Shown: one piece after another, positions 566-41,675 of the stretch
How the letters are laid out: each line of letters starts with the position of its first letter
Position numbering within the stretch: position 1 is the stretch's first letter
Source: Syntrophaceae bacterium UBA5744
Lineage (GTDB): Bacteria > Desulfobacterota > Syntrophia > Syntrophales > UBA2192
Assembly (NCBI GenBank): GCA_002419215.1
Contig: DIFQ01000139.1
Location: forward strand, 4,732 to 68,731
Reading direction: 5' to 3'
Length of the DNA: 64,000 nt
Notes under the pieces: model-generated
Databases searched by the model: none
What the model was told of the DNA's origin: nothing
What the model saw: the letters and a program-made list of their open reading frames with translations, nothing else
Translations under genes and position numbers: made by a program

Positions 566-1072
566 ATGATTCGCGTCGTCTGCTGCTACTGCAAAAAACA
601 GGTGAAGACGAAGCCCTCGGAAATCGATGCCGTCTCGCACGGCATCTGCGATCAGTGCCTCCCCCTCATGGTCCGGGAGCTCGGGCAGCCGATGTCGGAG
701 TTCCTCGACGAGCTGGGCCACCCCGTGCTCGTCGTGCAGGACAACGCCCGGGTGATCGCCGCCAACGCGGCCGCCCGGAAGATGATGACCAAAGAGCAGC
801 TCGAGATCTGCGGCGAGCTGGCGGGAGAGGTCCTCGGGTGCCGGCACGCGAAGGAGCCGGGAGGGTGCGGCCAGACGATCCACTGCAAGAGCTGCACGAT
901 CCGGCAGTGCGTCACGCACACCCTGGAAACGGGAGTGCCCTGCCGCAAGACGGCCTATGCGGACATCGGCCTCGTCAGCGGCGACAGGAGGGTGCGCTTC
1001 CTGATCGAGACGGAGAAGGTGAACTCCTTCGTGCGGCTGACGATGTACGACGTGCGGGAAGCGAAAAAGTAG
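566..1072 (+). CDS. Cys-rich hypothetical protein: N-terminal CxxC...CxxC zinc-ribbon-like segment plus a PAS-like domain carrying a Cys cluster
   Basis: 168 aa. Motifs are CCYCKK ... CDQC at the N-terminus and GCRHAKEPGGCGQTIHCKSCTIRQC in the PAS-like core. The stop codon lies in the arm of a hairpin element. Confidence 0.6.
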   Translation: MIRVVCCYCKKQVKTKPSEIDAVSHGICDQCLPLMVRELGQPMSEFLDELGHPVLVVQDNARVIAANAAARKMMTKEQLEICGELAGEVLGCRHAKEPGGCGQTIHCKSCTIRQCVTHTLETGVPCRKTAYADIGLVSGDRRVRFLIETEKVNSFVRLTMYDVREAKK

Positions 1073-1190
1073 GGTATCGGGTATCGGGGTTCGGGTATCG
1101 GGTTTAGAGACAAGACGGGATAAAAAAAGGATCGGAGACATGATCGTCCCGATCCTTTATTTTTTCCTTACCCTAGACCCGATCCCCTAC
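1069..1190. repeat. Periodic-arm hairpin element (GGGTATC type) with an inner bidirectional terminator
   Basis: Arms are GTAGGGTATCGGGTATCGGGGTTCGGGTATCGGGT and ACCCTAGACCCGATCCCCTAC. The TAG stops of the two convergent genes sit in the outermost arm positions. Confidence 0.8.
1122..1165. terminator. Bidirectional intrinsic terminator between convergent genes
   Basis: A7-GGATCGG ... CCGATCC-TTTATTTTTT, i.e. an A-run upstream and a T-run downstream of a 7-bp GC-rich stem. Confidence 0.65.
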
Positions 1191-3259
1191 TTTTCAGTTA
1201 CGATTTTCGAGAAGTCCGCCACGTTGTGGAAGAGCTTCGCCACGGCCTCGAGCATCGAGAGGCGGTTGAACTTCACCTTCTCGTCCTTGGCCATGACGAG
1301 AACGGCCTCGAAGAAGGCGTCGACGGGTTTTCTCAGGCGGACCATCTCGAGGAGGGCCTCCTTGTAGTTGCCCATCTCGATGAGGGCCTCGGCCTTCTTC
1401 CGGATCTCGATGTAGGCGCTGTAGAGCGTCTGCTCGGCCTCGTTCTCGAAGAGCACGGGGTCCACGCAGCCGTCCTTGAAGTCCTTCAGGATGTTGCTGA
1501 CCCGCTTGAAGGCCACGGCGAGCGGCTCGAAGTCGGGGTCGCCCTTGGTCGCCTCGACGGCCTCGATCTTTTTGATCGCCTGCACCAGGTCCGAGATGCC
1601 CGTGGCCAGCACGGCGTCCACCACGTCATAGGGGCGTCCCTGGGAGACGAGCTGGTTCGAGAAGCGGCTCCGGAAGAACTCCAGGACGTCCTTCTTCGTT
1701 TCCTCGGGTGTGCGCTTGAACTTCTTCTTCAGGATGGCGATGCTGCGGTCCACGAGCTCCGGCAGCTCGATGGGGTAGCCCTTGTTGAGGATGATGTTGA
1801 TAATGCCCAGGGCCTGCCTGCGCAGGGCGTAGGGGTCGGCCGTCCCCGTGGGGATGACGTTGATCCCGAAAAATCCCACGATGGTGTCCGTCTTGTCGGC
1901 AATGCTCACGATGGAGCCTTCCTCGGTCCGGGGAAGATCGCCGCCGCCCGATGTGGGCAGGTAATGCTCGTAGACGGCCTTCGCGACGACGGGGTTTTCA
2001 CCCTGGATGAAGGCATACTCGCGTCCCATCGTCCCCTGGAGCTCGGGGAACTCGTAGACCATCTTCGTCTCGAGGTCGGCCTTGGCAAGCAGGGCCGTGC
2101 GGTCCACGTTGTCCTTCAGGGCCGGGTTGACCTTGTCGGCGATCCAGGCCGCCAGCTCCCGGAACTGCATGACCTTGTCGTAGGAGGTGCCGAGGGCCGA
2201 GTGGAAGACGACCTTCTTGAGCTCCTCGAAGTGGGTCATGAGGGGGATCTTCTGGTCCTCCTCGAAGAAGAACTTCGCGTCGGCAAGGCGCGCCCGGATG
2301 ACCTTCTCGTTGCCGCGGGCCACGACCGCCGGGTCCTTCGCCACGGTGTTGTTGATCGTCACGAAGTGGGCCATGAGGTTGCCGTCGGCGTCGACAACGG
2401 GGAAGTACTTCTGATGCGAGATCATCGTCGTCGTCAGGACGTCCTTGGGGAGCTTCAGGTAGTCCTTCTCGAAGTTGCCGAGCACCGCCGAGGGGTACTC
2501 GACGAGGAAAGAGACCTCTCCGATGAGATCCTCGTTTTCGAGGATCTTCCCGCCCACACGGGCTGCGGCATTCCGTGCCTCCTCGAGGAGGATGCGTCTG
2601 CGCTCCTCGGGGTCGACGAGGACGAAGCGCTTGCGGGTCTTCGCCAGGTAGTCCCGGTATCCCTTCACCTTGAAGGGCTTGGGGCTCATGAAGCGGTGCC
2701 CCCGGGACAGATCGCCCGACGTAATGTTCTCGATCTTGAAGGGGACCACCTCGCCGCCCCAGAGGGCCACGATCCAGTGGATGGGCCGGGCGAAGCGGAT
2801 CTCGAGGTTCATCCACCGCATGGACTTCTTGAAAGGGATCGAGAGGATGAACTTGGGCAGGATCGCGGGCAACAGCTTGATCGTGTCCTCGCCCTCGAGC
2901 TTCTTGCGGGCGCCGATGTACTCGCCCTTGTCGGTCGAGATGATCTCCACCTCGGAGATGTCGATGCCCAGTCCCCGGGCAAAGCCGAGGGCGGCCTTCG
3001 TGGGGTTGCCCTGCTCGTCGTAGGCGACCTTCCTGGCGGGCCCGAGTTTCTCGATGAGCTGATCCTCCTGCCTCTCGGCAACGCCGGCCACGCACAGCGC
3101 AAGCCGCCGCGGGGTGGCCACGGCCTTTACCTTGCCGTGCTTGATGCGGTGAGCGGCAAACTCCTTCTGGATCATCTCCTCCATGTCCGCGATCGCCTTC
3201 GGCAGGAAGGCCGCGGGGATCTCCTCCGTCCCAATTTCGAGAAACAACTCTTTAGCCAT
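1187..3259 (-). CDS. glyS: Glycine--tRNA ligase beta subunit
   Basis: 690 aa with the canonical N-terminus MAKELFLEIGTEEIPA. Lies directly downstream of glyQ on the same strand. Confidence 0.95.
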   Translation of the reverse strand: MAKELFLEIGTEEIPAAFLPKAIADMEEMIQKEFAAHRIKHGKVKAVATPRRLALCVAGVAERQEDQLIEKLGPARKVAYDEQGNPTKAALGFARGLGIDISEVEIISTDKGEYIGARKKLEGEDTIKLLPAILPKFILSIPFKKSMRWMNLEIRFARPIHWIVALWGGEVVPFKIENITSGDLSRGHRFMSPKPFKVKGYRDYLAKTRKRFVLVDPEERRRILLEEARNAAARVGGKILENEDLIGEVSFLVEYPSAVLGNFEKDYLKLPKDVLTTTMISHQKYFPVVDADGNLMAHFVTINNTVAKDPAVVARGNEKVIRARLADAKFFFEEDQKIPLMTHFEELKKVVFHSALGTSYDKVMQFRELAAWIADKVNPALKDNVDRTALLAKADLETKMVYEFPELQGTMGREYAFIQGENPVVAKAVYEHYLPTSGGGDLPRTEEGSIVSIADKTDTIVGFFGINVIPTGTADPYALRRQALGIINIILNKGYPIELPELVDRSIAILKKKFKRTPEETKKDVLEFFRSRFSNQLVSQGRPYDVVDAVLATGISDLVQAIKKIEAVEATKGDPDFEPLAVAFKRVSNILKDFKDGCVDPVLFENEAEQTLYSAYIEIRKKAEALIEMGNYKEALLEMVRLRKPVDAFFEAVLVMAKDEKVKFNRLSMLEAVAKLFHNVADFSKIVTEK

Positions 3260-3276
3260 CTGAAACTCCAGTGAAT

Positions 3277-3365
3277 GAGTGTCTAAGTGTCTGAGTGTCT
3301 AAGTGCTTCAATAAAAGGAACCGGTTCCGTCCCTATACCCGGGCCCCTATACCCGATACCCTATC
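3277..3365. repeat. Chimeric periodic-arm element in the glyQ-glyS gap
   Basis: The left arm is GTGTCTAA-type 8-mers. The right arm is CCCTATACCC/CCCGATACCC-type, so the arms are not complementary. The core contains the perfect palindrome GGAACCGGTTCC. Confidence 0.75.
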
Positions 3366-40689: not shown

Positions 40690-40702
40690 GGTCGTACGCG
40701 GA

Positions 40703-41620
40703 ATGACGATGAAAAAGAGGAATTCCGCCGCGGGACCGTTTCTGGCCCTTGTCTTCATCTCCCTGATCTGGGGCTACAACTGGGTCGTCATGAAGGAGAC
40801 GCTGCGCTACGCGGGGCCTTTCGACTTCAACGCCCTGCGGATGGCGCTCGGCAGCGTCTTTCTCTTTGCCTTCATGGCCTGGAAGAGGGAACCCCTGAGG
40901 CCGCCGTTTCCCCTGTGGACGGCCATCCTCGGGTTCGTCCAGACGGCCCTGGGCACGGGGCTCATCGTGTGGGCCCTGGAAACGGGCGGCGCCGGAAAGA
41001 CCTCGATCCTTGTCTACACGATGCCTTTCTGGATCCTGCTCCTCGCCTGGCTCGTCCTGGACGAGAAGGTCCGGGGCGCCCTGTGGGTGCCCATCGTCAT
41101 GGCCTTCTGCGGCCTTGTCTTCATCCTCGAGCCCTGGGCCCTCGGGGGCACGGCGCAGAGCAAGATGCTCGCCGTGATGTCCGGCGTGTGCTGGGCCACG
41201 GGCGCCGTCATCGTGAAGCTCCTGGGCAAGGGCCGGAAGCTCGACCTCATCCGGCTTACAACGTGGCAGCTCATCTTCGGGACCCTGCCGCTCGTCCCGG
41301 TGGCCTTCCTCGTGCCTTCGCAGCCCATCGAGTGGTCCCCCTACTTCATCGGGTCGATCGTCTATAACTCCATCCTCGTCTGCGGTGTGGCCTTTCTGCT
41401 GTGGACCTTCGTGATTGACCGTCTTCCCGCCGGGGTGGCCGGCCTGGGGACACTGGCCGTGCCCGTCATCGGCATGACAGGCTCGCGGCTGCAGCTGGGC
41501 GAGCAGATCGCTTTCTGGGAGGGCTGGGGAATCGCCCTCGTTGTGGCGGCCCTGGCGCTCCTGTCGATCATGCGGCTGCGCGAGCGACGGAAGGAAGCCG
41601 TCGTCCTGGGGCAGGACTAG
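40703..41620 (+). CDS. EamA/DMT-family transporter
   Basis: About 10 TM, with two EamA-like halves (LIWGYNWVVMK ...). Confidence 0.85.
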   Translation: MTMKKRNSAAGPFLALVFISLIWGYNWVVMKETLRYAGPFDFNALRMALGSVFLFAFMAWKREPLRPPFPLWTAILGFVQTALGTGLIVWALETGGAGKTSILVYTMPFWILLLAWLVLDEKVRGALWVPIVMAFCGLVFILEPWALGGTAQSKMLAVMSGVCWATGAVIVKLLGKGRKLDLIRLTTWQLIFGTLPLVPVAFLVPSQPIEWSPYFIGSIVYNSILVCGVAFLLWTFVIDRLPAGVAGLGTLAVPVIGMTGSRLQLGEQIAFWEGWGIALVVAALALLSIMRLRERRKEAVVLGQD

Positions 41621-41632
41621 GCCGCTACGCGG

Positions 41633-41675
41633 CCGGAATCGGGCATCCGGAATCCGGATTCCGGAAACCTGAAAC
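41633..41675. repeat. Short GGAATCCGG-type palindromic element
   Basis: Contains the perfect 18-nt palindrome CCGGAATCCGGATTCCGG (41647-41664), just after the EamA gene. Confidence 0.65.

Follow-up and report, generated by a model that had tools for sequence, protein, structure and literature searches.

Introduction

Repetitive extragenic palindromes (REPs) and their compound forms, bacterial interspersed mosaic elements (BIMEs) and REPINs, are abundant, imperfect extragenic palindromes of gamma-proteobacteria that measure about 100 nt when doubled, often lie just 3' of genes and within operons, form mosaics of different motifs, turn over quickly and give RNA stem-loops. REP hairpins stabilise the mRNA that precedes them, and, as Liang, Rudd and Deutscher reportedly found in 2015, a REP that lies within about 15 nt of a stop codon can lower the translation of the upstream gene. 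Here we describe intergenic elements in a 64 kb stretch of a Syntrophales genome (Syntrophaceae bacterium UBA5744; the whole stretch is referred to as the window). Each arm is a run of four units of 7 or 8 bases, inverted relative to the other arm; the whole element is about 110 bases long, and at least five unrelated unit words share this one build inside 42 kb. With moderate confidence, we interpret them as co-resident, REP/BIME-like or REPIN-like families of non-autonomous intergenic repeats, with arms that would evolve by slippage and would form stem-loops at transcript 3' ends.

In Geobacter metallireducens, paired "putative global regulator binding sites" of classes 1-3 (the Gmet_I features) were described by Aklujkar et al. 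2009 (PMC2700814). The paired sites lie on opposite strands, each consists of 3-5 tandem 7-9-nt repeats with a word that differs per class, and binding of IHF/HU was proposed (PMC2700814). GGGNATC repeats of Xanthomonas and Nostoc show a preference for four units and form 70-75 convergent inverted pairs per Xanthomonas genome; they are intergenic, occupy the sense strand near stop codons, are transcribed and form G-quadruplexes (G4) in vitro, and no function was identified for them (Rehm et al. 2015, PMC4692102). A literature search for later functional work on GGGAATC gave variable-number tandem repeat (VNTR) typing only. Heptamers have also come up in wider surveys. In Mrazek et al. 2007 on long simple sequence repeats (LSSRs), as quoted in later papers, they are the dominant intergenic class and polymerase slippage is the idea put forward, while Mori et al. 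2019 (PMC6344855) found them to be the most abundant intergenic periodic repeat across prokaryotes, with "no clear clue" to their function. TAACTGA repeats were reported in Beggiatoaceae and cyanobacteria, and the heptamers of Calothrix are comparable (MacGregor 2015, PMC4679880).

Elements of the window

Tandem Repeats Finder placed period-7/8 arrays of 3.4-4.9 copies at essentially all of the coordinates given in a preliminary description of this DNA, and an inverted-repeat search recovered imperfect arms of 24-43 nt that are 71-88% complementary and 17-82 nt apart (Table 1). Our own scanner, set to a period of 7 or 8, a minimum of 3.5 copies and a self-match of 72% or more, detected 30 arrays in the window, whereas 50 first-order Markov simulations averaged 2.3 and never exceeded 6. 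The build of tandem units in inverted arms that was first described is confirmed, and the original count of twelve complete and about six partial copies agrees with the 12 paired elements and about seven solitary or chimeric arrays found here. The nearly exclusive intergenic location was likewise borne out: intergenic DNA makes up 17.6% of the window and contains 27-28 of the 30 arrays (binomial P about 1e-17). The excess is restricted to periods 7 and 8, for which the 64 kb contain 13 and 14 arrays, the background rates in about 1 Mb of unrelated pyrC loci being 0.04 and 0.008 per kb; in the window, no arrays were counted at periods 9-11 or 13-16, and two at period 12. Both characteristics of LSSRs, namely head-to-tail tandem units of 5-11 nt in arrays longer than expected by chance and intergenic over-representation, are present. 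A scan of the entire window against Rfam at gathering thresholds matched no family, and a tRNA/tmRNA search of the window found none.

Table 1. Coordinates of the tandem-unit elements (E1-E17) and of other features of the window. TRF, starts of arrays found by Tandem Repeats Finder; IR, position of imperfect inverted arms in the inverted-repeat search; z, RNAfold energies relative to dinucleotide shuffles, given for both strands.
Feature	Coordinates	Status	Word or family	Arms, arrays or parts	TRF	IR	Site	z
E1	1065..1194	paired	GGGTATC-type	arrays 1069-1105 and 1168-1190 around bidirectional terminator hairpin 1117-1167	1072	1065	between convergent genes 566-1072 (+) and glyS 1187-3259 (-)	-5.6 / -4.4
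E2	3269..3366	partial; chimera of two unrelated arms	GTGTCTRA and CCCTATA/CCCGATA	3272-3310; 3331-3364	3278		glyS-glyQ gap; second array overlaps glyQ stop codon	+1.5 / +0.9
E3	4372..4484	paired	GAGGGTAA family	4379-4421; 4439-4481	4379/4450	4379	abuts recO stop (4485)	-6.9 / -4.5
E4	5275..5386	paired	GGGTATM family, canonical, conserved core	5281-5311; 5350-5380	5279/5350	5281	pyrC-recO gap	-5.4 / -5.2
E5	7736..7772	partial; solitary	CCCTGNA		7738		7 nt past pyrR stop; G-rich on sense (minus) strand	no fold
E6	8540..8655	paired	GGGTATM family, canonical	8548-8578; 8617-8647	8548/8617		divergent pyrR<>tolQ gap	-6.8 / -4.9
E6b	8656..8705	partial; solitary	C-rich heptamer				next after E6	no fold
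E7	10825..10925	paired	GAAGNNNN family		10828		after TolA-like gene	-2.9 / -2.3
E8	13875..13978	paired	GGGTATM family		13879		abuts cpoB stop; separate terminator-like hairpin next	-5.3 / -5.9
E9	14866..14980	paired	GAAGNNNN family	14869-14909; 14937-14977	14869/14944	14869		-7.0 / -6.0
E10	19105..19242	paired	GTGTCTRA family		19128/19197	19128	10 nt past stop of MinD/ParA-like gene	-8.6 / -6.0
E11	20115..20226	paired	GAGGGTAA family		20119/20196		overlaps stop of GGDEF gene (20214-21077, minus)	-8.1 / -10.5
E12	21222..21330	paired	GGGTATM family, canonical		21226/21294	21226	abuts stop of 21331-21897 (minus) gene	-5.0 / -4.3
E13	23262..23415	paired; hybrid	GGATTCA and GGGNATC-type	23272-23306; 23383-23412	23275/23385			-2.2 / -2.4
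E14	28070..28105	partial; solitary	GGAAGNNN		28073		20 nt upstream of 27150-28049 (minus) gene start	no fold
E15	28303..28401	paired	GAAGNNNN family		28379	28305		-4.8 / -5.1
E16	37636..37682	partial; solitary	GAAGNNAA		37651		20 nt from stop of 37702-38115 (minus) gene	no fold
E17	41630..41680	partial; short, self-complementary	CCGGAAT		41633		10 nt past EamA-type transporter gene stop	-1.1 / -1.3
RAYT-like gene	33476-34480 (+)			flanks 33395-33441 and 34479-34530
VapBC-like pair	34689-35087 (-), 35084-35374 (-)						directly downstream of RAYT-like gene
Small palindromic repeat	32730-32770, 32806-32850, 44639-44661		CCCTCTCC-N(3-8)-GGAGAGGG then CAGGGTGAGGGGG				two copies after ADP-forming acyl-CoA synthetase gene
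ORF with TolA match	8776-10773 (+)			tolQ 8798-9619; tolR 9623-10048; TolA-like C-terminal domain about 10370-10710
Repeat-containing ORF	21331-21897 (-)			periodic repeat 21443-21502

Dispersed families

Judging from shared sequence, each word class is a family of homologous dispersed copies and different words are different families, since copies with the same word also have their non-repetitive cores and flanks in common. For example, the 44-nt cores of E4 and E6 are nearly identical, and E8 and E12 have a related core. The comparison loci, which carry L-numbers, are the pyrC loci of GTDB genomes (L001, L004 and others) and metagenome contigs. The right arm of the GAAG family, CCGCTCTTCCGCTCTTCTTCACTTCCTAACTTC (CCGCTCTTC CGCTCTTC TTCACTTC CTAACTTC), recurs at 10891 and 14945 as well as at a non-syntenic site in L001, and this family has a conserved left end, GCGTTTRYGAAG. 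Copies in L154 and L157 appear to be orthologous to E12.

Metagenome contigs were scanned with the right-arm pattern of the GGGTATM family, CCCGATACCCGAGNCCCGATACCC, and 109 stretches contained an exact match. An upstream G-rich array accompanies 60 of the 98 distinct matches, which were counted as paired, and about 45 paired copies carry the same 43-45-nt core (consensus TCCGAAGGTACTAAAGAATTTCTATAAAYGAAATCTKCTTCCTT) between unrelated flanks. A common core between unrelated flanks makes the GGGTATM family a defined dispersed element of about 110 nt, consisting of a left arm of 4 x GGGTMTM, the A/T-rich core and a right arm of 4 x CCCGAKA. Arm size has its peak at four units (42/59 left arms in this metagenomic set). 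The arms are not exact complements, the left being GGGTATA-like and the reverse complement of the right being GGGTATC. The GAAG, GAGGGTAA, GGATTC and other families are present on the same metagenome contigs as GGGTATM, and elements may be adjacent or nested, as in L085, where the E17 sequence recurs between GGG arrays. By analogy, this mosaic arrangement resembles that of BIMEs. On the right flank, many metagenomic GGGTATM copies (L089, L098, L107, L115, L116, L125, L143 and L144) run straight into an AGAC-rich periodic motif (e.g. GGACGGAACAGACCGAATAGACGGAA), which suggests recurrent composites of two families.

Dispersed copies with such ends could be MITEs (miniature inverted-repeat transposable elements) or REPINs that are mobilised in trans by a transposase, and the window offers a candidate, a Y1 (IS200-like) tyrosine transposase of 334 aa that resembles the REP-associated tyrosine transposases (RAYTs; PF01797, E 9e-9; NF047646, 62.7 bits against a cut-off of 80). 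We regard this origin as most improbable, even though the copies share with MITEs their terminal inverted repeats, a length within 50-500 bp and a multicopy state, differ in presence between species, and have counterparts in G. metallireducens where insertion sequence (IS) elements insert at a fixed distance from the paired sites. The RAYT-like gene itself belongs to a very large family annotated as REP-mobilising transposases, with at least 8000 homologues. However, no target-site duplication was seen, the ends of 50 copies having no direct repeat and just 5-7 A/purine-rich nt on each side, and the copies compared have no fixed termini and no GTAG at their ends. REP hallmarks are absent, as the arm is not itself a palindrome and has no 5' GTAG. 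The gene is flanked by a 28-nt inverted repeat (AATAGGGACGGGTATGAAT...) that is unrelated to the array families and occurs nowhere else in 1.8 Mb of related DNA, and perfect tandem duplications (upstream, 11 nt x2; downstream, 17 nt x2) lie beside each arm of this repeat. In 1.8 Mb of array-rich loci there is no homologue of the gene, and two homologues elsewhere have a private inverted repeat of their own and no heptamer arrays nearby. On these grounds, the RAYT-like gene was rejected as the mobiliser of the elements. Among the matches listed, the exact protein occurs in three, all at one and the same locus (7 further matches are similar), which fits a single-copy domesticated gene. No cognate RAYT gene bounded by array repeats was found in the window, and no parent IS with the same ends was seen in the 1.8 Mb of related loci.

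Sites adjoining stop codons

Most elements lie very close to the ends of genes. Two of them, E2 and E11, overlap the stop codon of the upstream gene and three (E3, E8 and E12) abut it; the distance is 7 nt for E5 and about 10 nt for E7, E10 and E17. In the metagenomic set, distances between the outermost GGG, on either side, and the stop codons of long open reading frames (ORFs) peak at -1 to +7 nt, and such a stop occurs within 60 nt of 44 of the 60 paired copies. Stop and array are separated by 5-7 nt that are A/purine-rich with no base fixed. Since the elements lie just after stops, and also within operons, they must be transcribed as 3'-untranslated or intercistronic RNA. The preliminary description listed the genes that these elements follow, and for the MinD-like and GGDEF genes this holds; the element at 19105 lies upstream of ctpA rather than after it, and the gene at 21331-21897 is also followed by one. 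Several entries of the list were off by one gene, since the minus strand carries the genes from 14028 to 21897.

Two simple rules for this placement were considered and rejected. The first, that the G-rich arm always comes first after the stop, holds in Syntrophales but is reversed in Nitrospirota (C>G in 10/12, with crude ORF calling). According to the second, the element would provide the stop codon itself, and some ends do read TGAAGAGGGG, yet no T is fixed and few ORFs end within arrays. The elements show little preference of orientation relative to flanking genes (32 vs 26). In solitary arrays the G-rich strand is the sense strand just past the stop in 13 cases and the opposite strand in 1 (P 0.002).

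A G-rich sense strand beside the stop was also reported for Xanthomonas, and it raises the possibility that the active structure is a G4 or i-motif, in which four to five G3 tracts with 4-nt loops would fold in DNA or RNA just past the stop. As a unit, GGGTATC conforms to the published GGGNATC type, the four-unit preference matches what a G4 requires, and GGGAATC oligonucleotides formed G4 in vitro (Rehm et al. 2015, PMC4692102). Nevertheless, we think it very unlikely. The GAAGNNNN, GTGTCTRA and GGATTCA families have the same build with four-unit arms and no G-tracts, and a four-unit optimum in such words speaks against G-quadruplexes as a shared principle. G-tracts are also absent from the Geobacter classes with their 3-5 units, the complementary arm would compete with G4 folding in paired copies, and Rehm et al. 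found no regulatory role.

Gain, loss and slippage

The closest PyrC loci among GTDB genomes are from Syntrophales metagenome-assembled genomes (L004, 94% and L001, 90% aa identity), and Smithella and Syntrophaceae come next at about 64%. The genes of L001 and L004 are syntenic with those of the window and about 85% identical; the gaps between them differ sharply. An element occupies the pyrC-recO gap in the window and L004, while in L001 there is none and the recO start follows the pyrC stop by about 10 nt. The glyQ-recO gap holds a GAGGGTAA element in the window and L001 that is reduced to one unit per arm in L004. Between glyS and glyQ, the word GTGTCTRA is present three times in the window and once in L004, and L001 has an unrelated word, GCCTGAA / CAGGCAN. 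The site after the TolA-like gene is occupied by the GAAG family in the window and L001 and by the GGGTATC family in L004. A different word in the same gap was found in three of the compared gaps. E6 has an ortholog in L004 and none in L001, and between the 566-1072 gene and glyS the bidirectional terminator core is kept in all three genomes with different flanking arrays. Elements are gained, lost and replaced quickly between sister species. Two allelic contig pairs (L103/L174 and L158/L184) have identical flanks and differ by one GGGTATA unit, in the left arm only, so single units are gained or lost in one arm at a time, in a slippage-like manner.

Such changes invite an explanation in which the elements are a purely mutational by-product, produced by polymerase slippage in 7-8-nt steps, accumulating where selection is weakest and having no function, with inverted pairs that arise by template switching at existing hairpins. 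An enrichment that is specific to the period and independent of the word, unit indels on one side, very fast turnover and arrays that flank a pre-existing terminator with words differing by species (E1) are all as expected from it, as is the reported rank of heptamers among intergenic repeats of prokaryotes. Even so, we consider it rather unlikely. It leaves unexplained the 43-45-nt non-repetitive core at about 45 loci with unrelated flanks, the sharp optimum at four units, the conserved asymmetry of the arms (GGGTATA vs GGGTATC) and the orientation bias of solitary arrays (13 vs 1). Template switching also predicts perfect complementarity of the outer units, which are in fact the least complementary. 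In view of the conserved core, slippage alone is insufficient.

Stem-loop potential

Ten of the 12 paired elements fold into long imperfect hairpins, with z from -4 to -10 and about equal values on the two strands, and the exceptions (E7 and E13) are weaker. The hairpin fold that had been attributed to the elements therefore stands for the paired copies, which are inverted extragenic doublets forming one long hairpin, as are REPs and REPINs. It does not extend to the solitary arrays or the chimera E2, where z is 0 or above; the copy at 3277 had been taken for a GTGTCTRA hairpin, and the array next to it is not its complement. The arms of the copy at 23267 (E13) are different words that are only partly complementary. 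Stems are interrupted by periodic internal loops, and outer units pair through their conserved part alone (GGG/CCC or GAAG/CTTC; in E7, outer pairing is confined to the latter).

A G+C-rich stem followed by a U-tract on the sense strand is present in the E1 core (terminator-like on both strands), in E3, where UUUUU follows on the sense (minus) strand, in E10, where U-tracts follow on the sense (minus) strand, and in the 75-nt core of E13, which contains a terminator-like hairpin plus T6. E4, E9, E11, E12 and E15 do not have this pattern, and most copies have no U-tract, as originally noted. A simple terminator scan is blind to stems with cores of 20-80 nt and thus uninformative on the elements themselves.

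According to the preliminary description, selection on structure had kept the fold while the word was swapped. This could not be upheld, as each word class is a family of homologous copies, no covariation is seen, permuted arms are usually as stable, indels are one-sided and solitary and chimeric arrays exist. When the order of units in the right arm was permuted, the hairpin was at least as stable as the native one in 23/23 permutations of E7, 21/23 of E9, 71/119 of E4, 75/119 of E12 and 12/23 of E15, and only in E3, E8 and E11 was the native order near the optimum. Arm complementarity is thus largely no better than in reordered unit arrays, an outcome that had been named beforehand as refuting, and since most permutations are as stable, it is a property of the word and not of matched positions. 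RNAalifold of 38 GGGTATM copies gave invariant arm pairs and zero covarying pairs, the core alignment being too noisy for a count of inner-stem pairs. Compensatory changes, for which a test in orthologous gaps had been suggested, were not found; the gaps of the sister species showed gain, loss and word replacement instead. Sense and antisense folding energies showed no consistent difference, and mismatches are A.G or C.T, not G.U. The potential to form hairpins is real; its maintenance by selection stays without support.

Absence of RNA-type covariation would be expected if the elements act at the DNA level, each arm being a set of four 7-8-bp sites for a nucleoid-associated or ribbon-helix-helix protein and the inverted pair around an A/T-rich core forming a symmetric nucleoprotein complex, for chromosome organisation or global regulation, as Aklujkar et al. 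proposed with IHF/HU for the G. metallireducens sites. Proteins that bind rows of short sites include omega of pSM19035, which binds tandem 7-bp heptads, MetJ, which binds tandem 8-bp metboxes, and ParG, which binds 4-bp boxes at 8-bp spacing. The unit is conserved only in part (GGG, GAAG or GTGTCT) and otherwise variable, much like a recognition box and spacer, solitary arrays exist, the elements are independent of the orientation of flanking genes, and the arm is fixed near four units, or about 30 bp, irrespective of unit length, as it is in the Aklujkar classes. The four-unit optimum, the oriented solitary arrays and the partly conserved units keep this protein-binding reading alive. We nonetheless hold it to be unlikely. 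At least five unrelated words in 42 kb, and dozens in related contigs, would call for many cognate proteins or a reader blind to sequence, and between sister species one word replaces another in orthologous gaps. No candidate for a binding protein came to light, and the positions follow stop codons, not promoters.

Proposed origin and possible action

The interpretation favoured here, REP/BIME-like or REPIN-like families residing together in the genome, would account for the dispersal of the elements by copying and for the variation of their arms by one-sided slippage of units. The inverted arms would give an imperfect stem-loop of 30-45 bp in RNA, which may work like a REP hairpin, by blocking 3'-exonucleases or by serving as a partial or backup terminator, while a minority (E1, E3, E10 and E13) would include or wrap a terminator with a U-tract. 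Position just past a stop codon is possibly the least harmful place for a self-propagating or slippage-prone sequence, and this may be why the elements persist. If they act at all, they probably do so as stem-loops at transcript 3' ends, by analogy with REPs, and the nearest functional parallel would be the effect that REPs have on the mRNA and translation of the gene before them.

A number of observations weigh against this interpretation. On the side of structure, the native order of units is not optimised for stability, there is neither covariation nor a G.U strand asymmetry that would favour RNA over DNA, a conserved A.G mismatch is found in every GGGTATM unit, where the GGGTATA left arm opposes CCCGATA, and the majority of copies have no U-tract. 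Efficient termination by E4, inside a tight operon of the L001 type, would be harmful. The orientation bias of the solitary arrays, which are incapable of forming hairpins, suggests that something beyond the stem matters, and purifying selection alone could explain the proximity to stop codons. As to propagation, target-site duplications, a parent IS and a cognate transposase are all missing from the DNA searched.

Other features of the window

The genes of the window include glyS, glyQ, recO, pyrC, pyrB, pyrR, the tolQ/R/A-tolB-cpoB cluster and those for an S41 protease (ctpA), a MinD/ParA-like ATPase and a GGDEF protein. The 665-aa ORF with a TolA match (Table 1) is an artefact, an open alternative frame across tolQ and tolR, and the TolA-like C-terminal domain maps only to its distal part. 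The 188-aa ORF following E12 on the map has no Pfam match and contains a 12/15/27-nt periodic repeat (CCCAGCCGCCGC...); it probably encodes a repeat protein of low complexity.

The RAYT-like gene has directly downstream of it a VapBC-like pair, specifying a PIN-domain toxin and a ribbon-helix-helix antitoxin (Pfam assignments made for this locus in other contigs). Another small repeat, which is palindromic and has a chance expectation of 0.01, has two copies about 600 nt upstream of the RAYT-like gene and a third further away; this CCCTCTCC repeat is a REP-like family distinct from the tandem-unit elements.

From 42000 to 64000, the window has no 7/8-nt arrays despite 14 intergenic gaps of 40-611 nt, and gap occupancy is 15/17 in 1-28.5 kb versus 0/14 in 42-64 kb (Fisher P 5e-7). 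Several large ORFs in this segment are without a Pfam match, and G+C falls to 0.54-0.56 in 54-60 kb. The segment may be younger or foreign.

Comparison with described systems

The preliminary description recognised no named repeat family in these elements, and none is matched in Rfam; their kind, on the other hand, had already been described in Geobacter, Xanthomonas and the heptamer surveys. The Gmet_I sites of Geobacter have the same architecture, variable spacing (about 80-110 bp overall), several words per genome and an intergenic location, and come from the same phylum-level group. Paired sites are present in the window as 12 elements with cores of 17-82 nt. The Gmet_I words (GTTGCTYN, TCTCCGTS and MTYCTGA) differ from those of the window, among which only GGATTCA resembles one of them, class 3 (TCAGRAK), and IS insertions adjoin the Gmet_I sites, whereas none was seen beside the copies in the window.

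With the GGGNATC repeats of Xanthomonas, the GGGTATC elements share the type of unit, the preference for four units, inverted pairs, a G-rich sense strand near the stop and variation of length and sequence among close relatives. This unit type takes in GGGTATC (1072-1103, and as the reverse complement of right-arm CCCGATA) and excludes the GAAG, GTGTCT and GGATTCA families. The Xanthomonas repeats belong to another phylum and, unlike the Syntrophales element, have no reported conserved core of 43-45 nt. The window adds families of the same build without G-tracts, which argues against G4 as the common denominator. Tandem 7-nt units, an intergenic excess and a patchy distribution across phyla are also features of LSSRs and other heptamers, but the arrays in those reports are mostly single and direct, and TAACTGA lies just upstream of start codons, whereas the window elements are mostly inverted pairs just past stops. 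REPs, BIMEs and REPINs are similar in size, place, mosaics, turnover and the hairpin doublet. Their arms, however, are short palindromes with 5' GTAG and are associated with a RAYT gene that has these REPs on its flanks, in contrast to the tandem arrays without GTAG described here and the unrelated flanks of the RAYT-like gene.

A scan of 80 pyrC loci revealed similar arrays, often paired, in Thermodesulfovibrionia/Nitrospirota and Nitrospinota. In L013, L026, L032 and L039 (Nitrospirota), L008-L010 (Nitrospinota) and L024, arrays reach 0.8 per kb and are denser than in the window. Words in these distant phyla include GGTTCAC, AGCCATC, CAGACTC, CAGGATG and GGGTCAAA, adjacent inverted pairs are frequent, and the C-rich or pyrimidine-rich strand tends to come after the stop. 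It is conceivable, though in our view quite improbable, that palindromes armed with simple sequence repeats are one class across Syntrophales, Geobacter, Xanthomonas, Nitrospirota, Nitrospinota and cyanobacteria, with a common propagation mechanism that builds arms of ~30 nt from 7-8-nt units of any word and puts them within a few nucleotides of stops. Such a mechanism might rely on a dedicated enzyme or on a process linked to how translation or transcription ends, and the intergenic excess of heptamers in prokaryotes would then be its footprint and not that of polymerase slippage.

The architecture itself is already published (2007, 2009, 2015, 2019), and the Syntrophales elements belong to this known, functionally unexplained class. 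For the open question of heptamer repeats, the window is a dense example, and its value is that of a well-defined test system, not of a new kind of element. The handles that it adds are a ~110-nt element with a conserved core, a four-unit optimum that extends to words lacking G-tracts, one-sided indels, ends that lie 0-7 nt from stops, and replacement of one word by another.

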